DNA of 64,000 nucleotides from Escherichia coli (GTDB lineage: Bacteria > Pseudomonadota > Gammaproteobacteria > Enterobacterales > Enterobacteriaceae), in assembly GCF_003334355.1 (NCBI RefSeq), contig NZ_QOWP01000002.1, one strand, 5' to 3'. How positions within the stretch are numbered: the first letter of the stretch is position 1; each line of letters starts with the position of its first letter. Under the pieces are notes generated by a model that worked only from the letters and a program-made list of their open reading frames with translations, ran no database searches and was not told where the DNA came from. Shown piece after piece: positions 10,328-31,848 of this stretch. Both the position numbers and the translations under genes were made by a program.

Positions 10328-12265
10328 CTAACCATCATACCAAGCATAGTTAAGATACTGTGTAACTCTATTTCTTGATAGTTCAAATAGCTGAGTGCCA
10401 TTTTGAACTCCAGACAGATCAAACCTGGTATTTTTGGTTAGCATATCCCATCCAGTAGCAGCTGGTGATACATACATTTTAGTGGTGGACATAGGGATTA
10501 TGTTACCCCTCAAGCTAATGTCTGAAATAGAACCTGAACCTGTTACTTCCAGTGAAATTCCTTTGTTGGATGCTGGACATAAAATAGTGTTGCCAGAAGC
10601 AATAAAACCAGTCATGGAACCCGACGTTAGCATGTCTATACCATCTGAAAGGGTATAAGCGTTATTATTAGTGACCTTCACGTTTGACGTGTTTCCAGCG
10701 TCACTAGCCTTGATGAAATTGGTTGTGTTGCTTGACCGGTTGTAGTCAACATTAAGCCCAGCTATTGTTGACGCTCTCAGGAAATAACTATCATTAGAAC
10801 TATTGCCAGAGAATACATTTTCAGAAATATAAACATCTTCAGACATATATACATCTGCAAATGATTTACACGTCCCTTTTGCCCTGTTGCGGTTTATTTT
10901 GATGTGTTTACTACCACTACCATCATATGTCTTGATGAATAATGGGATTACAACAGCACCGCCGATCAGGTCGTTATCCGTAATTTCAATCTCATCCGCA
11001 TGGTTTCCTATATGAAATGCTTCTGTTCCATACTGACCTGCCGACAATATGTTCTTGTACACTTTGCCATACGAGGTATTGGCATGAGTATCTATGCCAA
11101 AGGTTTGACCAACACCAGCGCCTTGAATGAAGTATCGTGCAGCAAATCCGATAATATTGTTATTATATACCTTGAAATTTGAAGCGGTGTGACCTTCGTC
11201 GGGTTCAATATCTATACCAGCTAATAGCGTATCACCTATGTAGTTTCCATGAATCTCAAACTGCCTAGTATCACTTCCGGCTGCAATACCCATCCTATTG
11301 GTTGTAATGATGGTGTTATGCCTTACCTTGAAATTTTTCGCGTTATAAACCAGGATGCCATCACCACGCTGCATCCCTACACCACCAATATTTTTGATAT
11401 TACAATTTTGAATTAACAGCCCATCCGTCTGTACATCGTAGTTTGCATAATCACCGAACCATATTCCTATGCCGCACTCACCGGATAGCATTGAAATTCC
11501 AATATCGTGAACATTCACGCCGTCTATAACGATATTGCTGCCACCGTACCCACGAATTCCTCCATCCAGGGTGCCTGTTATATCAACATCAATCACTTTG
11601 GCGTTGGAGATGTTAGCCATAAGTATCCCGGATTTCTCTTGCTGAGTTCCGCCATCAAATTGAAAGTTTAATGACCCGCTATGCATCACTTTATTACTTT
11701 TGTGGTTAATAGGTGAGCGAAGTTTTGAAACGAATCCGACGCCACCAAGTTTAACGCTAGGAGATTCAGAGTCTAATGCAGCGGATACAGCAGCATCGTT
11801 GAACTCTCCATCAATAGCACCCCATCCGCGAATGTCACCCTCTTCTCTCCACTGCTGAATTTTAATATGCTGATCCATCGATGGGATTAGAAGATATCCA
11901 TTTGGACCCGCTAGCTCTTGTCTTAATTGGTCAGGGTCATACTTCAGCACATTAGGAAAATAGAACTGCTGGGAACCATACGCATCATAAACAGCCATAG
12001 AATGGCCTTGCACAGTTACGAACTTGGCAATCTGTCCGTTATATACCGGGTAACCAGCAGCGTTAATGATGATTGGTTGCGAAACAGGAACGTGAGAACC
12101 GTCTTCGTTCTCCACATAAACCTGAATCTGGTTTTCTGGATTTACCGGATCCGTGTCAATTTTACCGATATAAATTTTACCATTGGCTACGGCTTTAAAA
12201 GAACGAGCCATAGTGAAGAGTTGCGATGGCATTGATACGATCACATTGGCTGTAATGTCTGTCAT
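10328..12265 (-). CDS. Tailspike protein (P22 gp9-like head-binding N-terminus, 645 aa)
   Basis: N-terminus [60 protein letters not shown]... is the conserved P22-family tailspike head-binding domain; long beta-helix-like remainder. Confidence 0.9.
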
Positions 12266-12321
12266 TTAATTTGCTCCAGATACAAGGAATCGCCGCAGCA
12301 TGGCTACGGCAATGCGTCATT

Positions 12322-12336
12322 GAGACCACAGTGGTC
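12322..12336. promoter_or_regulatory. 15-bp palindrome AGACCACaGTGGTCT, Mnt-operator-like, between mnt and tailspike
   Basis: Perfect odd-length inverted repeat in the divergent mnt/tailspike intergenic region; resembles the symmetric P22 Mnt operator as recalled. Confidence 0.5.
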
Positions 12337-12400
12337 TTATTGTGGATATAACCAGTAGATCATATGATGCCGATCCACTTACAAAAGTGAGGCATCAAGA

Positions 12401-12652
12401 ATGGGAAGAGATGACCCGCAATTTAATCTGCGGCTACCTTACGAATTAAAGGAAAAACTAAAACAGCGAGCCAAATCCAATGGCCGCTCTCTTAATTCAG
12501 AATTAGTTCATATAGTGACTGATGCTGTATCAAAGCCATCCAAAATTTCAGGCTATCGAGACGATGCGGAACGCATCGCTGATGAGCAGTCCGACCTTGT
12601 TAAGAAGATGGTGTTTGATACGCTGAAGGATTTGTACAAAAAAACCACCTGA
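12401..12652 (+). CDS. mnt: Mnt-like ribbon-helix-helix repressor (83 aa)
   Basis: Translation MGRDDPQFNLRLPYELKEKLKQRAKSNGRSLNSELVHIVTDAVSKP...MVFDTLKDLYKKTT closely resembles P22 Mnt as recalled. Confidence 0.85.
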   Translation: MGRDDPQFNLRLPYELKEKLKQRAKSNGRSLNSELVHIVTDAVSKPSKISGYRDDAERIADEQSDLVKKMVFDTLKDLYKKTT

Positions 12653-12751
12653 CGGTGAGTTAATTTTTGCATTTACCTGGGCCATATTGACTACTTATAA
12701 AATGAGATCAATATTTAATCGCCCAATAACGGGTGTATGTTGAGGTATATC

Positions 12752-12931
12752 ATGGCGAAAAAACCAGGTGAAAACACAGGGAAAAACGGCGGAATATACC
12801 AAGAAGTTGGCCCACGCGGCGGTAAGAAAGACAATTTTGCCACCGTCAAGGACAACGAAAGGCTTCCACCAACAACAAAGCCAGGTCATGGCTGGGTATT
12901 GGATAAGCGAACTCCAGACAGCAAAAAGTAA
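12752..12931 (+). CDS. Hypothetical small protein (59 aa), unknown function
   Basis: ORF MAKKPGENTGKNGGIYQEVGPRGGKKDNFATVKDNERLPPTTKPGHGWVLDKRTPDSKK with GAGG RBS and a TTGACT -35-like element upstream. Confidence 0.55.
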   Translation: MAKKPGENTGKNGGIYQEVGPRGGKKDNFATVKDNERLPPTTKPGHGWVLDKRTPDSKK

Positions 12932-12944
12932 TAATCAAGCCGGG

Positions 12945-13310
12945 TCACTCCGGCTTTTTGATATGTCGCTCGCAGAACTCAACAAGCCTGCTCATTAAGT
13001 AGCAGTAAGTCTCGTTGGCTCTTCCTGGTTCAACATCAACACCTACCCTTGAGCAGATATCGAATGCCATGTGAGCGCACTCATGGGCAATAGTAGATAG
13101 TTTGCCATTGAACACGCCTATCACATGCAAAACACCATTCTCGCTACTCATTGTATGAGACGCTCCGTTGGCGTCCGAGTCATGCACGTCAACGCCAAGT
13201 TTTTGATGCAGGCGTTGCCATTCTGGAAAGTCTCTACAAAACACAATTGTACCGCTCTCAAAGAGCGGAACGAGCATCTTTGGTACGTTTCCAATGTTAA
13301 CTTTTTTCAT
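12945..13310 (-). CDS. Hypothetical protein with HExxH motif (121 aa), possible small zinc-metallopeptidase-like protein
   Basis: Protein-like [27 protein letters not shown]... containing AHECAHM; occupies a gap not covered by other credible genes; AGGA upstream of ATG. Confidence 0.5.
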
Positions 13311-13340
13311 GGTATCCTGCGTAAAACTAAGGAGGTTGGT

Positions 13341-13835
13341 GTGTCTGATTCTATGAGTTACGCTGTGCTAGTTGCCGCAACTCTATTTCTGGGGATAGGG
13401 TTGCAGATTGCGTGGTTCTTTTTTTCTAGTTTTATTAAACGTAAAAGAATTGAATCAAGGATATCTGAGATTTCTATTGCTATAGGGAAAAATGCTGAAA
13501 ATCCAGAGAATGAGGCCTGCGCACTGAATTACCTTAAAGAAAAGTTTTCCCCTGAAAAATTTGAAAACAGAATTACTGATGCTCTTGGATTGGTAATATC
13601 AGTAATTCATATGCCACTAAGTTTGCTGATAACAGTGTGGTACTTCGCCATGATCGCCGGAAGAATATTTGGTTTCATGAATATAGAGCCTGTAGTTCTT
13701 TGGGTTCCAATGATACTGCAATTGTTGTTAAGCGTTGCTATCTTTATTTTTTCTGTTTTTATAAAAATTGTCTTCGGAAGATACCCCGGAGAAGCGAAGG
13801 GATTTAATAAAGAATTCATAAAAACTATAAAATAA
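13341..13835 (+). CDS. Hypothetical multi-pass membrane protein (~164 aa); candidate superinfection-exclusion protein by position (SieA-like locus)
   Basis: AGGAGG RBS then GTG 13341/ATG 13354; hydrophobic segments ([24 protein letters not shown]..., ...[20 protein letters not shown]..., ...[27 protein letters not shown]). The upstream extension to 13125 in the ORF track is rejected. Confidence 0.6.
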
Positions 13836-13857
13836 ATGCCGTCCTTGGCTTACAGTG

Positions 13858-15732
13858 CTACTGCCGGGTAGCTTCGTTAACTAAGAGCGGGCGCACGGCA
13901 GTAGCCGCCTGATTTAGCGCTCTTTCATAAGCTGGCGTTCCAGCTTTAGTGTTTGCCAGACGTAAGAGCGCATTCCTTGCTGCTTTGGATTCATACAAGC
14001 GCATCATTGCACCGAAACCAGCCTCAAGCCCCATTGATACGCCAAGAGTCGTAGTTGCGCCAATCGTCCTTATCCTGTTGGCTTGCGATTGCCCCGTCTG
14101 AGTTACTACATTTGCGGTGTCTGATCTTGCTGTTTGCTGTAGAACTTCATGAAGAGCATCAAGTTCTTTCATGTGCTTTCCAGAAAAAATAGCGTTGTAA
14201 ATTTCACCGCCTGACTGAGATTTCAGCTTATTAACTTCCGTGATGAACTTGGCTGGAGAGTCACCGGCCTTTTCCGCTATTTTGCTGACGTAAGCTGCAC
14301 GCATAGCATCTTTCCCTTTATCATCCAATGCGCTCCAGATTCGTTTCACGTCAGATGGTTTTCTGCTTAATACAACAGTATTTATAAGTTCAGGACTGGC
14401 TTCACTGCTTGCCTTGTTGAGCTTGTTAGCAATGTTTTTATTAAGCACCTTATTATAAACGTTTGCATAATCGGAATTTGCTTTAAGGTATTTTGCTGCG
14501 TCTGAAGCACCGAGGTTTTTAGCAACTGCGTTACGAAGGTCTTTTGACATTGCATTCTCTACCATATTGGTAGCTGCTTTTGCCTGGTTGGGGAAGACCA
14601 TGGCATCTCCCTGAACATTAGATCTAAATGCTGTTCTGTGCTGGCGCAAGAGATCAAACGTAACATCCAAATCAGTTGCAGGGTTTGCTAATTCTTCACG
14701 TAGGTTACGCAAGGATGTAAGCAGGCTTTGATTGGCAGAAGTCCCAAGCCGTTCCTGTCTTGCGATCGCTGTATTCAGAGCATTCATGGTATTTGTGGTA
14801 TCAACTGCGGCATTACCCATTTTATTGGTGACGTCATTGATAACAGCGCCAGCGGCATCCTTCCGTCCCCTTAACGTGGTGGTCAGAGATTTCACCACAT
14901 CATCAGGGTTGTACTCACCAAAACGGTCAAAATAATTGCTTACCAGCTTACTACGCGTTGCATATTGCTCCGCTCGCTTTGAGCCTGTCCCGAGCAAAGC
15001 CCCCTCAGCATCCTGAGTAAGTCCGCGAGTGAAAGCATTTTTCGGCGGGATAACATCAGATGTCATTGGTGTCACGCCCATCGATTCTGATGTGGCAATT
15101 TTCTTTGCCACTTCTGGCGCAATATCACCTTTTATAGCCGTTATTCCACGCCCTATTCCCTTTGCTGCTGCGGAAAGAACCCCCTGAGCGGCAAGGTTAA
15201 CTCCGGCATTTTTAGTTGCATTTTGTGCGAAATCGCCTTTCTGATTTGCGGCCTCTGCCAGTGATCCAATAGCCATGCTTCCTGCCGTTCCAACTCCTGG
15301 AACTAAATACCCGCCAATTGTTTCACCAGCTTGAGCGTAGGGGTCTGTCGGTCGATCGACTGGACGATAAACATCATCCAAAACCTTGGGGCCACCAAGC
15401 CCCTGGCTGATTGCATTAATCAGGCTTGCGCCGCCCTGTAATACGTCGAATGGTATGTTTACCAGACCACGACCAGCCTGCTCTGCAATTTGCCCTGCAC
15501 TTTGACCACCTGTGAGCCAATCACCAGCTTGTTGCATCAATGATGGTTCTTCTTTCTGCTGCTGAGGCGGAGGGTATGCTGCATAAAACTGATCTCTTGC
15601 TTCAGCCCATTTGTCACCAGCCTTAGGGGCAACAACCTCATCAAAATATTGCGCTTGAGCCTGTGCTTTCTGTTCTTCAGTTAACGCCTGATACTGTGGA
15701 GAGGCGATAACATCTTTCCATGCTTTAGCCAT
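13858..15732 (-). CDS. Ejection (DNA-transfer) protein, P22 gp16-like (624 aa)
   Basis: Size, position at the distal end of the late operon and Ala/Gln-rich sequence typical of P22 gp16. Confidence 0.8.
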
Positions 15733-26071: not shown

Positions 26072-27487
26072 TCAACCTACACCACAAGGAATTGAGTAAC
26101 TGGAATAGTCGGGTTGCGCAGCCGACTCCGGGCAATGCATACACATCATCAGCGCATCAGCCAGGTTAGGAGATGGAATACCGAGCTTCTGCTTCATTTC
26201 GACCTTAGTCATTAGCTCCAGCTTCCCGTTGTTATTGAATTTGCGCTGAATCTGCGTCAGTTCTGCAAACAGCTTCTCCAGCATATTCTCGCCTATCGCT
26301 TCTTTGTCGAAACTCAGCATGTCGTCGGGGTCTGCATACTCACCGTGAACAACCGCCCGATATGTCAGATACAGCCTGTCAGCCAGCGCGTAATAGAATT
26401 GCGCTCGCTTATTGCGGAATACATCGCCAATAGTGCGAACATTGTCGCCCTGTACGACTTCATCAGCCCATGCTCCGGCCTGATATGGCGCATCTTCATC
26501 GAATGGCGATTCGCTGCCCTTGAACATCGTGGCGGTGATTTTCTTGCCGGAGAACGCTTCCGTTGTCTGTCTGCGTAGCCCGGCACCAACACCATCACCA
26601 TCCCACAGGTAATGGTCAGCGCCGTCTTCAATCGCCAGCGAAGTAGCCCAGTCAGCACCCTCGTTGATGTCCATCAGCAGACCTTCGGCAATGCGCTTAA
26701 CTACCGAACCTTGACGCGATGCGTAACCTTTAGCATCTGGCCCTGTATCTGACGGGTCATGTGCAGAAACAACCGCGCCTTTCGCTTTCCATCCGAGTTT
26801 CTTGTGCGCATCGGTTGCGGCTTCAAGCCATTCACGTTTGATGATTGCCATATCACTTGCGCTTACCGGCTCACCAAGCCAGATGTGACGATACAGTGTC
26901 GGATTTCTGCGTTTACACTCTTCCATCTCCAGACGGAGAACTTCAGGAAAGTGCGGGTTGTCGGTGTAGTTCACCGTCAGCAGGCAAATATCATCGGGAG
27001 GATTTACAACGAATCGCTGATAGGTATCGTCGAGGATGTTCTTCGGGTTAAAGCTCACCCATATTTCGGAAAACGGCTTGCGGATGGTTGGGATCAGGAT
27101 ATCCCATGATTCCTTCGTTACCGCTTCCGCTTCTTCCACCCAGCAGATATCAATGCCTTCGAGCGATTTAATCTTCGTCGGGTTGTTTTTGATGCCGTAG
27201 AACATGAATTCAGCATTCGTTCCGAGATGACGGATCATTGAACGCTGAATTTCAAACTCAGCCGAATACCCTTCACGCTCGATGGTGTCTTCAAGCAACC
27301 GGATTACCGAATCGCTGATACTGTTTTGCAGTTCACGAGCACAGAGAATACGCACTGGCTGCCGACGCGCCGCTTCAACAAGCAGTCTCGCAATTGCCCA
27401 TGATTTACCGCTACCTCGACCGCCTTTGGCGACTTTGTAGCGATGCGCCTCAATGAACGGTTCAAAGATAGGATTAATCGAGGTCAT
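26072..27487 (-). CDS. Terminase large subunit (471 aa)
   Basis: Walker A (AKGGRGSGKSWAIARLL), conserved ...CWVEEAEAV... and C-terminal nuclease-type region; directly follows the small subunit. Confidence 0.9.
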   Translation of the reverse strand: MTSINPIFEPFIEAHRYKVAKGGRGSGKSWAIARLLVEAARRQPVRILCARELQNSISDSVIRLLEDTIEREGYSAEFEIQRSMIRHLGTNAEFMFYGIKNNPTKIKSLEGIDICWVEEAEAVTKESWDILIPTIRKPFSEIWVSFNPKNILDDTYQRFVVNPPDDICLLTVNYTDNPHFPEVLRLEMEECKRRNPTLYRHIWLGEPVSASDMAIIKREWLEAATDAHKKLGWKAKGAVVSAHDPSDTGPDAKGYASRQGSVVKRIAEGLLMDINEGADWATSLAIEDGADHYLWDGDGVGAGLRRQTTEAFSGKKITATMFKGSESPFDEDAPYQAGAWADEVVQGDNVRTIGDVFRNKRAQFYYALADRLYLTYRAVVHGEYADPDDMLSFDKEAIGENMLEKLFAELTQIQRKFNNNGKLELMTKVEMKQKLGIPSPNLADALMMCMHCPESAAQPDYSSYSIPCGVG

Positions 27488-27924
27488 TTTCCGAATAGAG
27501 TGCTCATCGGTGATGTTTCAATCTGGATTGCGCCGCCGTCTTTGCCTGTTAGCTCGTGATCAACCTTGTCGCGCCATTTATCCTTCTGTCGGTTCTTAAG
27601 CCAGAAGATGGCAGCGGTTGTATCAGGAGGGTAATACTTCTCAAGCGGAGTTTCGACAATTCTGTTTTCAATAACACGAATATCGATGTCTGGAGCCACG
27701 AAGCCCATAGCTCGTTGATAAAGACGATCACTAACTTCTGCATCAGCGACGGCCTTACCTTTTTTTATGGACTCCGAAAACTTAGGATAATCAAGCTTCC
27801 ACTTGTTAATAGTTGACTCACTGACTTCAAAGAAATCAGCAAGTTCTGCATCGGTGTAGCCCAGCAAGCACAGTTTGCGTGCCTGTTCGGCATACGCCTC
27901 TTGATACTTTGTTGGGCGTGCCAT
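27484..27924 (-). CDS. Terminase small subunit (146 aa)
   Basis: MARPTKYQEAYAEQARKLCLLGYTDAELADFFEVSESTINKWK... (HTH) immediately upstream of the large terminase. Confidence 0.8.
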   Translation of the reverse strand: MARPTKYQEAYAEQARKLCLLGYTDAELADFFEVSESTINKWKLDYPKFSESIKKGKAVADAEVSDRLYQRAMGFVAPDIDIRVIENRIVETPLEKYYPPDTTAAIFWLKNRQKDKWRDKVDHELTGKDGGAIQIETSPMSTLFGK

Positions 27925-28169: not shown

Positions 28170-28425
28170 TGTTGGCTCCGTTTATCCGTTAAAAGGGATA
28201 TCAGTTAAGTTATCCCGTGTAGGGTATAAGCCATTGTCGAGACCACTCATTGAATGGCCTCTGCAATAACCGATGTCTTTCCATCAGTCCGCCACCACAA
28301 AGAATCTTTTTTGCCATAAGGCAGGAGGTTCATCTTTCAGTGGCTGCCAGTGTTATTTCCCCACTTACTGGCTTGGGTTGTTTCGTGGTACTGCCGTAAT
28401 GCAAAAACTGGATTAACCTGCGAAA

Positions 28426-28956
28426 TCACACCATTCCGGGCAAATACATTTGCACTTCATTTGCCGCTCTCTCACGTGCAACATGAAGCAATCTTTTTCG
28501 CCCACCAACGCCCCACTTAGCCATTTGGCTTGCGCACTGGCTTATCGCTTTGGTTTCAGTATTGATGATGTGATCGATTCTATTCAGACGGGACATTGCG
28601 CCAACGCCGAGACGGACAACCGTTTTGAAAACTTCATAAACTTCGACTTCAAATTCCGGCTTAATCCATGCTGCATATCTGATTGCCAGAAGTTCAACCC
28701 CCCACACACCTGGTTCTGCACCACCTTTGATTATTTTAAGTGGTTGAATTTGTTCCAAAGTGCTTTTTTGCACTTTGGCCTCCAGTGCTTTTATGAAGCG
28801 TTTTATCTGCGCGCTACGCAAAAACTGGCTTGGACGCTGTTGCTCTGTAGCCTCTTCATTTGCAACTGCTGCTGCATGGAGATCGTTTAAGTTGTAGCGT
28901 CCATCCTCATCAACACGAACGGACACACCATTGACAATAACTGTTGGGTACTTCAT
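28426..28956 (-). CDS. KilA-N domain-like protein (176 aa)
   Basis: N-terminus MKYPTVIVNGVSVRVDEDGRYNLNDLHAAA... resembles the KilA-N/APSES DNA-binding fold; assigned from memory, not searched. Confidence 0.5.
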   Translation of the reverse strand: MKYPTVIVNGVSVRVDEDGRYNLNDLHAAAVANEEATEQQRPSQFLRSAQIKRFIKALEAKVQKSTLEQIQPLKIIKGGAEPGVWGVELLAIRYAAWIKPEFEVEVYEVFKTVVRLGVGAMSRLNRIDHIINTETKAISQCASQMAKWGVGGRKRLLHVARERAANEVQMYLPGMV

Positions 28957-29100
28957 CAGTGATTACCTTTTAGTGATGAACCTTGTCACACAGGATTCCG
29001 GCCCACAGAAAGGCACCGATCACCAAACCGGCATCCTCAAGGGTCATCCTGAAAGGTTCTGTGTTCAGAAGTCGCGCGTGTGAAGCGCGTTTGTTGCAGA

Positions 29101-29127
29101 TATAAAAAAGCCCCGCAAATGCGAGGC
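29101..29127 (-). terminator. Rho-independent terminator downstream of the lysis cassette
   Basis: Minus-strand hairpin AGCCTCGCAtttGCGGGGCT followed by TTTTTTAT. Confidence 0.55.
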
Positions 29128-29301
29128 TAAATCCTGGTATTTGTAATGACTGGCTCTTATCTCAACGCAGCCCCTTACCGCGCGCCAGATGCTCAATATC
29201 AAGCATCAGCAATGAGATGTTTAATCTGGATTCACTCCAGAAGTGATCACCACCCTGTCTACAGAGCCAGATGTGAAGGATGATGAGTAAAATTATCGCT
29301 A

Positions 29302-29769
29302 TCATTGAAGGCATTGCGTCCTGATGTATTCCTGAAGCGTTCTCAGTGCTGTTTGGTCGCGGATAATTCCGTCCCGGATATCGAGAACGTTTCGTCCAGC
29401 AACTGGAGAGAGTTCGACGGTGGCATCATTGCCCATGCCGGAGGCGCCGGAGGTTTCGGCTGAGGATGGCTCAGGGCATTTTCCTTTGACGAGCACCCTG
29501 CCACCATTATCAAGCTTGCGCCGAAGAGCATCATTTTCAGCTTTCGCATCAGCTAACTCCTTCGTGTATTTAGCATCGAGTGCATCAGCAGCACGCTGGC
29601 GTTGCTGCATGTCAGTAATGGTGGCGGCCGCCTGCTTCAGCTCACTGACTTTTTTATCGCGCTGCTCTTTGTAGGTCATGGCGTTATCACGGTAATGATT
29701 AACAGCCCATGACAGGCAGACGATGATGCAGATAACCAGAGCGGAGATAATCGCGGTTACTCTGCTCAT
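29302..29769 (-). CDS. Rz: i-spanin Rz (155 aa)
   Basis: [30 protein letters not shown]... is almost identical to lambda Rz as recalled. Confidence 0.92.
29343..29549 (-). CDS. Rz1: o-spanin Rz1 lipoprotein, embedded in Rz in the +1 frame
   Basis: Embedded ORF with signal peptide and lipobox (LIMVAGC) and proline-rich PPAPPAW segment, as in lambda Rz1. Confidence 0.8.
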
Positions 29770-30242
29770 ACCTCAATCTCTCTGACTGTTCCGCCAGCTT
29801 CTTTGAATTTTGCAATCAGGCTGTCAGCCTTATGCTCGAACTGGCCATAACCAGCCCCCGGCAACGAAGCCCAGATATTGCTGCAACGGTCGATTGCCTG
29901 ACGGATATCACCGCGATCAATCATCGGTAAAGCGCCACGCTCTTTAATCTGCTGCAATGCCACAGCGTCCTGACTTTTCGGAGAGAAATCTTTCAGGCCA
30001 AGTTGCTTACGATAGGCATCCCACCAACGGGAAAGAAGCTGGTAACGTCCGGCTGCTGTTGATTTGAGTTTGGGGTTTAGCGTGACAAGTTTGCGAGGGT
30101 GATCGGAGTAATCAGTGAATAGCTCTCCGCCAACAATGACGTCATAACCATGATTTCTGGTTTTCTGACGTCCGTTATCAGTTCCCTCTGACCACGCCAG
30201 CATATCGAGGAACGCCTTACGTTGATTATTGATTTCCACCAT
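29766..30242 (-). CDS. R: Endolysin R (lytic transglycosylase, 158 aa)
   Basis: [42 protein letters not shown]... essentially identical to lambda R as recalled. Confidence 0.95.
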
Positions 30243-30549
30243 CTTCTACTCCGGCTTTTTTAGCAGCGAAGCGTTTGATAAGCGAACCAATCGAGTCAGT
30301 ACCGATGTAGCCGATGAACACGCTCGTTATATAAGCGAGATTGCTACTTAGTCCGGCGAAGTCGAGAAGGTCACGAATGAACCAGGCGATAATGGCGCAC
30401 ATCGTTGCGTCGATTACTGTTTTTGTAAACGCACCGCCATTATATCTGCCGCGAAGGTACGCCATTGCAAACGCAAGGATTGCCCCGATGCCTTGTTCCT
30501 TTGCCGCGAGAATGGCGGCTAACAGGTCATGTTTTTCTGGCATCTTCAT
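30226..30549 (-). CDS. S: Holin S (107 aa, dual-start Met1-Lys2-Met3)
   Basis: [41 protein letters not shown]... essentially identical to lambda S as recalled. Confidence 0.95.
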
Positions 30550-30667
30550 GTCTTACCCCCAATAAGGGGATTTGCTCTATTTATTTAGGAATAAGGTCGA
30601 TTACTGATAGAACAAATCCAGGCTACTGTGTTTAGTAATCAGATTTGTTCGTGACCGATATGCACGG

Positions 30668-30706
30668 GCAAAACGGCAGGAGGTTGTTAGCGCGACCTCC
30701 TGCCAC
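30668..30706 (-). terminator. tR'-like terminator (end of 6S RNA) between Q and S
   Basis: Minus-strand hairpin GGCAGGAGGTcgcgctaacaACCTCCTGCC followed by GTTTTG; matches lambda tR' as recalled. Confidence 0.8.
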
Positions 30707-31146
30707 CCGCTTTCACGAAGATCATGTGTAGAAGGCCGCAGCATAACTATCACTGATGAGTTCAGGATAGCCAGTGGCACGGCTCAGTTTGGGTTGTGCT
30801 GTTGCTGGGCGGCGATGACGCCTGTACGCATTTGGTGATCCGGTTCTGCTTCCGGTATTCGCTTAATTCAGCACAACGGAAAGAGCACTGGCTAACCAGG
30901 CTCGCCGACTCTTCACGATTATCGACTCAATGCTCTTACCTGTTGTGCAGATATAAAAAATCCCGAAACCGTTATGCAGGCTCTAACTATTACCTGCGAA
31001 CTGTTTCTGGATTGCATTTTGCAGACCTCTCTGCCTGCGATGGTTGGAGTTCCAGACGATACGTCGAAGTGACCAACTAGGCGGAATCGGTAGTAAGCGC
31101 CGCCTCTTTTCATCTCACTACCACAACGAGCGAATTAACCCATCGT

Positions 31147-31182
31147 TGAGTCAAATTTACCCAATTTTATTCAAAAAGTCAA
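31147..31182 (-). promoter_or_regulatory. Late promoter pR' (with qut region) downstream of Q
   Basis: Minus-strand TTGACT -17 bp- TAAATT about 45 bp downstream of the Q stop, as in lambda pR'. Confidence 0.75.
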
Positions 31183-31224
31183 TATCATGCCGTAAAGATG
31201 TTGCCATCCGTGGCAATCATGCCG

Positions 31225-31848
31225 CTAACGTGTGACCGCATTCAAAATGTTGTCTGCGATTGACTCTTCTTTGTGGCATTGCACCACCAGAGCGTCATAC
31301 AGTGGCTTAACAGTGCGTGACCAGGTGGGTTGAGTAAGGTTTGGGATTAGCATCGTTACAGCGCGATATGCGGCGCTTGCTGGCATTCTTGAATAGCCGA
31401 CACCTTTGCATCTTCCGCATTCTTTCTCAACAACTCTCCCCCACAGCTCTGTTTTGACAATATCGACCGCACGGCCTGTACCGTGGCAATCTCTGCATCT
31501 TGCACCCGGCGTCGCGGCACTACGGCAATAATCCGCATAAGCGAATGTTGCGAGAACTTGCAGTACCTTTGCCTTAGTATTTCCTTCAAGCTTTGCCACA
31601 CCACGGTATTTCCCCGATACCTTGTGTGCAAATTGCATCAGATAGTTGATAGCCTTTTGTTTGTCGTTCTGGCTGAGTTCGTGCTTACCGCAGAATGCAG
31701 CCATACCGAATCCGGCTTGTGATTGCGCCATCCCCATAGCAGCCATCACATCAGTACCGGAAAGAGAATCAGAAGCCGTGGCCCGTGGTGAGTCGCTCAT
31801 CATCGGGCTTTTTGGCGAATGAAATTTAGCTACGCTTTCGAGTCTCAT
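31225..31848 (-). CDS. Q: Late antiterminator Q (207 aa)
   Basis: MRLESVAKFHSPKSPMMSDSPRATASDSLSGTDVMAAMG... with zinc-binding CRDCHGTG...CGRCKG; near-identical to lambda Q as recalled. Confidence 0.95.
   Translation of the reverse strand: MRLESVAKFHSPKSPMMSDSPRATASDSLSGTDVMAAMGMAQSQAGFGMAAFCGKHELSQNDKQKAINYLMQFAHKVSGKYRGVAKLEGNTKAKVLQVLATFAYADYCRSAATPGARCRDCHGTGRAVDIVKTELWGRVVEKECGRCKGVGYSRMPASAAYRAVTMLIPNLTQPTWSRTVKPLYDALVVQCHKEESIADNILNAVTR

Follow-up and report, generated by a model that had tools for sequence, protein, structure and literature searches.

Does a P22-like prophage that carries a lambda-like late-control and lysis block owe the whole of that block to lambda, and where do the lambda-type sequences begin and end? 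The question is raised by a 64,000-nucleotide stretch of Escherichia coli DNA (assembly GCF_003334355.1, contig NZ_QOWP01000002.1; hereafter the window). An earlier note on this DNA described positions 29302 to 31848, which hold the antiterminator gene Q, the Q–S intergenic region, the holin gene S, the endolysin gene R and the spanin genes Rz and Rz1, as essentially lambda sequence grafted onto P22-like head genes. Our analysis indicates that 31858..29302 on the minus strand almost certainly holds the late switch and lysis cassette of a Lederbergvirus prophage, apparently intact, which resembles CUS-3, HK620 and Kapi1 and is inserted at argW, and that the cassette is a mosaic with a common and known combination of alleles. 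Q through R and codons 1–30 of Rz would represent the lambda allele, and the remainder of Rz together with Rz1 the HK620/SPN9CC allele. The exchange point would fall in the conserved 5′ end of Rz, an arrangement that leaves the periplasmic domain of Rz paired with the Rz1 it belongs to.

The list of open reading frames (ORFs) and direct reading place the whole block on the minus strand. Local blastn against lambda 41586–48502 (NC_001416) aligns window 31858..29522 with lambda 43875..46213 at 96.49% identity over 2,339 columns, with 80 mismatches and two gaps. A megablast search of 29302–31848 against 50,697 phage records likewise matches lambda at 96.6% over query positions 1–2324 (E = 0), a similarity well outside what chance would give. 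A 100-nucleotide (nt) sliding comparison, combined with a list of every difference, reveals 99–100% identity to lambda at 31846..31547, 31146..30797 and 30697..30248, and 93–96% in the 3′ half of Q and most of R. Across 29697..29498 identity falls to 79–83%, and then to 40–58%, where the sequences can no longer be aligned; from 29677 onward it is about 84%, and past 29522 none is left. Thus, the expectation of more than 95% identity over 29300–31850 holds for 31858..29522 but fails beyond that point, and the sliding comparison confirms the left joint while moving the right lambda boundary into the 5′ end of Rz.

Comparison by blastn and alignment with lambda, P22, HK620, Kapi1, SPN9CC and ST104 divides the cassette into segments of distinct affinity. 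Q, the late promoter pR′, qut and the terminator tR′ (31858..30954) are of lambda type, and are shared by P22 and HK620 only up to 31125, about 22 nt into the transcript. The leader segment that follows (30953..30790) occurs only in lambda among these references, its place being taken by tRNA-Asn and tRNA-Thr genes in Kapi1 and SPN9CC. Next comes a pre-holin leader (30789..30554) common to lambda and to P22-group phages with unrelated holins, and then S and R (30553..29772), which are of lambda type. Codons 1–30 of Rz (29771..29678) are near-identical in all references, and the distal part of Rz with Rz1 (29677..29302) is of HK620/SPN9CC type.

Q occupies 31225..31848 and encodes a lambda-family late antiterminator of 207 amino acids (phrog_127, E = 2.7e-82). 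The protein is identical to lambda Q at 206 of 207 residues, and 13 of the 14 nucleotide differences fall at third codon positions. Its translation displays the CRDC...CGRC cysteines, as expected for a lambda Q homologue with a helix-turn-helix body and a four-cysteine zinc-ribbon arm. The single change, A131V (window 31457), lies in this arm, which spans residues 114–152 (PMC9388147), three residues from E134 at the arm tip. The Q proteins of Kapi1, phiv205-1 and Dewey carry A131 and Q135 where the window has V131 and L135.

The left mosaic joint lies at 31849..31858, given that homology to lambda starts about 10 nt upstream of the Q ATG. The blastn alignment ends at 31858 (lambda 43875), and a cluster of mismatches and indels is found upstream of 31849; homology to P22 starts exactly at the Q ATG (31848). 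Upstream of Q lies ninH (31845..32033; phrog_268, E = 7e-26), the last gene of the nin region, whose stop codon overlaps the Q start codon (ATGA). Lambda carries ninI at this position, and the ninH of the window is not lambda-like there, whereas Kapi1, HK620 and phiv205-1 are annotated with the same ninH–Q arrangement. The proposed joint between Q and ninH near 31850 is therefore real, and is placed here at about 31858.

The Q–S non-coding leader is about 675–677 nt long, the same length as that of lambda. A consensus scan recovers pR′ at 31154..31182 (TTGACT-17-TAAATT, minus strand) with a Q-binding element in the spacer, which carries one difference from lambda (31175, T for A) that is common to the functional phages HK620 and Kapi1. 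Direct reading of the sequence identifies AACGAT at 31142..31147 as the −10-like, sigma-dependent pause element of qut, inside a stretch (31146..31047) with 100% identity to lambda; an element of this kind has an established role in Q loading (PMC9388147). Folding yields the intrinsic terminator tR′, which corresponds to the 3′ end of the 6S transcript, at 30953..31013 as a long hairpin followed by a U6 tract. Thus, the promoter with its Q-binding element, the downstream pause element and a terminator between promoter and late genes are arranged as in a Q-lambda cassette, and both the pR′ and tR′ sequences that had been proposed are present.

The tR′ hairpin has a folding energy of −20.7 kcal/mol (z = −4.3), compared with −26.9 kcal/mol in lambda. 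This weakening of about 6 kcal/mol is due to a C-to-A change at 31008, which creates an A·G mismatch in the lower stem. One possible consequence in this prophage is leakier late transcription. Kapi1 tR′ carries another single mismatch, on the 3′ arm. We also observed a 19-nt direct repeat with one mismatch, TTTTTTATATCTGCA, at 29095..29113 and 30946..30964, which corresponds to the U-tract and tail of tR′ and of a terminator-like hairpin after Rz (29128..29109). A duplication was considered and set aside, as by a rough estimate about 0.2 such repeats would arise by chance in 40 kb, and this significance is too low to build on; the repeat could reflect chance or two related terminators.

Beyond tR′, alignments delimit a 164-nt, non-coding, lambda-specific leader segment at 30790..30953, and the stretch 30996..30797 is 100% identical to lambda. 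At the same slot, Kapi1 (4899..5054 of its compared sequence) and SPN9CC (1355..1508) carry tRNA-Asn and tRNA-Thr, such that the space between tR′ and the pre-holin leader is filled in alternative ways, by cassettes that differ little in length. ARAGORN detects no tRNA in the lambda-type segment 30953..30790, and an Rfam search at E ≤ 5 returns only sub-threshold chance matches, none of them within this segment.

The 236-nt pre-holin leader (30554..30789, by alignment) is common to lambda, SPN9CC, ST104 and Kapi1 despite their unrelated holins. Within it, a 59-nt patch (30779..30721) has nine differences from lambda and is nearer to SPN9CC. The leader contains a strong hairpin at 30704..30675 (−28 kcal/mol, z = −3.9), followed by GUUUUGCCC. 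Compensatory changes in this hairpin were sought among the relatives and were not seen; the changes in Kapi1 and ST104 are single-sided and break pairs, and thus lend no covariation support to a conserved structure.

S (30226..30549) matches the holin_lambda model TIGR01594 with 127.3 bits, well above the curated cutoff of 55.05, and encodes a lambda-family class I holin/antiholin (S107/S105). The protein is identical to that of lambda at 106 of 107 residues (R105G), retains the dual start Met1-Lys2-Met3 (ATGAAGATG at 30549..30541), and is preceded by 40 nt, including a stem-loop, that are identical to lambda. R (29766..30242; phrog_90, E = 1.6e-63) encodes a 158-residue endolysin that differs from lambda R at two residues (G63A and D157E), with 19 of 22 nucleotide differences at third codon positions. 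By homology, and with the catalytic Glu19 present (...LAWSEGT...), it is predicted to be a lytic transglycosylase of the lambda R type.

The predominance of third-position differences in Q and R, along with the high protein identity, points to purifying selection on intact genes. For Q, R and the two spanins, NCBIfam yielded nothing above its cutoffs, and families were assigned with PHROGs and Pfam; PHROGs also supports the holin assignment. The claim that Q, the Q–S leader, S and R are of lambda type is thus well founded, with 96–100% nucleotide identity and proteins identical at 206/207 (Q), 106/107 (S) and 156/158 (R) positions.

The same cannot be said of the spanin genes. Rz (29302..29769) encodes a 155-residue i-spanin with a hydrophobic N-terminal transmembrane domain (TMD) and a Pfam Phage_lysis domain (PF03245, E = 3.2e-29, residues 29–153; phrog_13), yet only 95 of 156 aligned positions (61%) are identical to lambda. 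Identity to lambda declines along the protein, from 30/30 for residues 1–30 to 41/53 for residues 31–83 and 24/73 for residues 84–155. The first 30 residues are also identical (30/30) to those of SPN9CC and HK620, and residues 84–155 match each of these two phages at 67 of 72 positions. Over the whole Rz gene, nucleotide identity is 96.6%, without gaps, to SPN9CC and 88% to ST104.

Rz1 (29343..29549), a 68-residue o-spanin (phrog_3198, E = 7e-26), is embedded in the +1 frame of Rz and has a VAGC lipobox (Cys19) and a proline-rich stretch. It is identical to the Rz1 proteins of SPN9CC and Kapi1 at 66/68 positions each and of HK620 at 65/68, but to that of lambda at only 26/69 (38%) and of P22 at 20/75, and it falls outside the lambda-type o-spanin family. 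In a published classification, HK620, ST104, SPN9CC and mEp460 form an ‘HK620’ o-spanin family, separate from the ‘Lambda’ and ‘HK97’ families, although their Rz partners all belong to one i-spanin family (Kongari et al. 2018, PMC6139136). The similarity pattern of Rz and Rz1 in the window matches this grouping.

A six-way alignment defines the crossover interval as the 5′ end of Rz (29678..29771, TMD codons 1–30), which is near-identical in lambda, SPN9CC, ST104, HK620 and Kapi1. SPN9CC and ST104 diverge from the window directly 5′ of the Rz ATG, and lambda diverges from 29677 on; the exchange is therefore located within 29771..29678. As Rz1 lies inside Rz, recombination at the 5′ end would move the Rz periplasmic domain and its matching Rz1 as one unit. 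The proposed joint near 29300 does correspond to a break relative to SPN9CC and ST104, at about 29301, but it is not the lambda boundary, which lies within 29771..29678 and at the latest at 29522.

At position 29471, Rz1 of the window encodes Ser27 in place of the Cys27 found in HK620, Kapi1, ST104 and SPN9CC, which aligns with Cys29 of lambda Rz1. The same base alters Rz codon 100 to Glu instead of Val, and Rz retains Cys98 and Cys153.

The sequence elements themselves are observed directly, and their functions are read from near-identity to lambda. On this basis, Q would bind its site in the pR′ spacer and load onto RNA polymerase paused at AACGAT. The Q-bearing polymerase would then pass tR′ and the terminators beyond it and transcribe S, R, Rz/Rz1 and the head genes. 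The S105 holin would permeabilize the inner membrane, with its timing set by the S107 antiholin. R would cleave murein, and the Rz/Rz1 spanin complex would fuse or disrupt the outer membrane.

The prophage that carries this cassette spans about 37.4 kb between argW and dsdC. A 21-nt repeat (7831–7851 and 45266–45286) at the 3′ end of argW, the gene for tRNA-Arg(CCT) at 7776..7850, constitutes the attachment (att) sites, and an integrase ORF (7976..9169) adjoins attL. The right chromosomal flank is 100% identical to sequenced E. coli strains, and argW is also the integration site of Kapi1, HK620 and Sf6 (PMC8787464). The best nucleotide matches are Lederbergviruses, with late genes about 96% identical to phiv205-1, Kapi1, CUS-3, Sf101 and HK620, and the early region resembles HK97, HK022 and CUS-3. 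In none of 5,426 complete E. coli genomes does the prophage block exceed 97.7% identity.

That the flanking morphogenesis genes are P22-like is supported by tblastn, which recovers collinear matches to the P22 portal (35%), coat (29%), gp4 (41%), gp10 (87%), gp26 (76%), gp7 (73%), gp20 (62%), gp16 (77%) and tailspike N terminus (75%). The gene order of portal, scaffold, coat, tail, ejection proteins and tailspike head-binding domain is of the P22 type, as in Lederbergviruses. The tailspike ORF (10328..12265) matches P22 gp9 in its N-terminal 117 residues only, and its receptor-binding part is therefore of a different type. This end of the prophage coincides with a stretch of low GC content (0.40–0.43) at 8000..14000.

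Could the lambda-type segment be a recent, direct import from lambda into a P22-like genome that formerly had late and lysis genes of the P22 type? The three stretches of 99–100% identity (31846..31547, 31146..30797 and 30697..30248) are what such an event might leave, as is the 164-nt lambda-type leader at 30953..30790, where Kapi1 and SPN9CC have tRNAs. However, the window is equally far from lambda and from Kapi1, with 18 mismatches to each in the 724 nt that start at the Q ATG. Its S and R proteins are not the versions found in lambda: S is identical in Kapi1, Dewey and E. coli isolate 602, and R in these three and in HK620. P22 itself has a lambda-type Q and pR′ (see also PMC2629481), and Dewey, which is a Lederbergvirus (PMC11990801), carries the whole Q-leader-S-R segment at 97.8% identity. 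The direction of transfer cannot be inferred from these data.

A recent import is thus very unlikely, and the description of the block as ‘grafted onto P22-like head genes’ is overstated. P22 shares Q, pR′ and qut with lambda (94.6% nucleotide identity) and has an S-like holin, and Kapi1 and Dewey, both Lederbergviruses, encode exactly the S and R proteins of the window, a common allele known since HK620. As judged from these comparisons, the Q–S–R block is a widespread allele of the lambdoid pool and is not peculiar to this genome.

Some observations weigh against an intact mosaic cassette of a common type. Q A131V is absent from all six sequences compared (lambda, Kapi1, HK620, Dewey, phiv205-1 and E. 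coli isolate 602). The C-to-A change in tR′ is likewise found in no compared sequence, and the 61-mer that contains it has no exact match among 391 complete E. coli genomes holding the region. Rz1 Cys27Ser occurs in one other genome: of 346 complete E. coli genomes that hold the region, only isolate 602 (NZ_OW968111) has the Rz1 61-mer exactly, with Ser27, and one examined genome with a single mismatch to the 61-mer has Cys27. These three variants occupy functionally meaningful positions and could alter or impair function. In addition, the exchange point can be resolved only to 29771..29678, since all references are near-identical there.

The rarity of the three variants is also what would be expected if they were the first inactivating changes in a decaying, domesticated prophage. 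Against this, every ORF is intact and the substitutions are mostly synonymous, both att sites and the integrase ORF are present, and the sets of replication and morphogenesis genes are complete. Moreover, A131V is a conservative change, and the two cysteines retained in Rz may offer an alternative to the cysteine lost from Rz1: Berry et al. are said to have found in 2013 that, in lambda, a distal Rz disulfide can suffice or replace the Rz1 disulfide. We therefore regard decay as very unlikely. Least credible of all is that the whole block, Rz and Rz1 included, is lambda sequence with joints at about 29300 and 31850, for although the left joint is correct, Q through R and the first 30 Rz codons are lambda-like, and homology to SPN9CC and ST104 does break at about 29301, the proposal is refuted for distal Rz and Rz1 by lambda identity of 79–83% over 29697..29498 and 40–58% beyond, and by Rz and Rz1 proteins that are 61% and 38% identical to lambda (95/156 and 26/69) versus 94–97% to SPN9CC, HK620 and Kapi1.

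The favoured reading is a mosaic cassette of a known Lederbergvirus type. A tentative proposal beyond it, which we consider rather doubtful, concerns two conserved stretches with little or no coding content: the pre-holin leader of 236 nt (30789..30554) and the initial 90 nt of Rz would be selected elements and not passive leftovers. The leader might act as a functional RNA or terminator signal for holin expression in phages whose holins are unrelated, and both stretches might act as preferred linkers for homologous recombination; separately, the tR′ mismatch might render late transcription leakier. If this proposal is true, the linkers would let the Q/pR′, holin–endolysin and Rz-distal/Rz1 cassettes reassort separately, with the Rz domain kept with its cognate Rz1.

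The flanks of the cassette have affinities of their own. The nin genes (33212..31859) are of HK620/Kapi1 type. Farther upstream, ninD-ninE-ninF (33901..34387, minus strand) is 92% identical to lambda 41948..42434; apart from the block itself, no other DNA in its vicinity is homologous to lambda. The nin genes that flank this segment are not of lambda type; among them are a 155-residue ORF (33436..33903) and a gene with a DPPW motif (34382..34972), which possibly encodes a DNA methyltransferase.

On the other side, the segment 29301..29128 is of HK620/Kapi1 type and contains most of a 50-codon hydrophobic ORF (29162..29314, minus strand; PHROG 11822, E = 4e-38) that overlaps the last Rz codons. 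HK620-type phages and E. coli prophages conserve this ORF downstream of Rz, and it is absent from SPN9CC, ST104 and lambda; at the same spot, Kapi1 has a shorter ORF, Kapi1_042, of 144 nt with a predicted signal peptide. The terminator and KilA-N gene that follow (29127..28218) are of ST104 type (94%). The ORF list places the KilA-N gene itself at 28956..28426 and the terminase genes at 27924..26072.

That lambdoid phages exchange segments at gene boundaries is textbook knowledge, and P22-like coliphages with a lambda-type Q–S–R have been on record ever since HK620 was sequenced. The value of the present analysis is mainly for annotation, in that the spanin pair comprises an HK620-family Rz1 with a hybrid Rz, and the lambda boundary falls inside Rz. 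The rare variants in the tR′ stem, at Rz1 Cys27 and at Q A131 are relevant to any study of induction or lysis.

Compared with lambda, the window has the same gene order, Q–S leader, promoter, pause element, terminator and S dual start, but its downstream neighbours are P22-group genes where lambda has bor. P22 gene 23, Plate and qut are 93.6% identical in nucleotide sequence to the window and 94.6% to lambda, and the P22 gene 13 holin is S-like (83% nucleotide identity, 96/108 residues). In contrast, the lysozyme of P22 gene 19 is unrelated (T4 e-type) and its gene does not match the window at the nucleotide level, P22 gene 15 and Rz1 represent other spanin alleles, and the P22 leader differs beyond about +22. 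A study of phage epsilon34 reports that the Q proteins of P22, epsilon34 and Para1 are 99% identical to that of lambda, and that lysis cassettes are mixed freely among P22-like phages (PMC2629481).

SPN9CC and ST104/PS119 have in common with the window the Rz/Rz1 pair, the pre-holin leader (30789..30554) and the terminator and KilA-N region. In Q, holin and endolysin these phages represent different families, and homology breaks exactly at the Rz ATG and the Rz stop codon.

The closest precedents are Lederbergviruses. HK620 (NC_002730) has the order ninH-Q...S-R-Rz/Rz1 followed by KilA-N and P22-like packaging and head genes, as in the window; in its record, which dates from 2001, Q, S and R are already labelled lambda-like and Rz PS119-like. 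Its leader is common with the window to about 22 nt past the transcription start (31125) and then differs, being longer (1,022 versus 677 nt) and having its own terminator, ‘tQ’. The best overall matches to the block, at 97–98%, are Kapi1 (MT813197), phiv205-1 (MN340231) and Dewey (PQ850600), and the Q–S–R allele of the window is already known from these three and from HK620. Dewey carries the full lambda-type Q-leader-S-R as a single uninterrupted segment; similarity to the window stops at query position 2195 (about 29654), and the Dewey Rz gene, annotated with 438 nt, encodes 145 residues. Kapi1 shares argW integration with the window and differs from it in retaining Rz1 Cys27.

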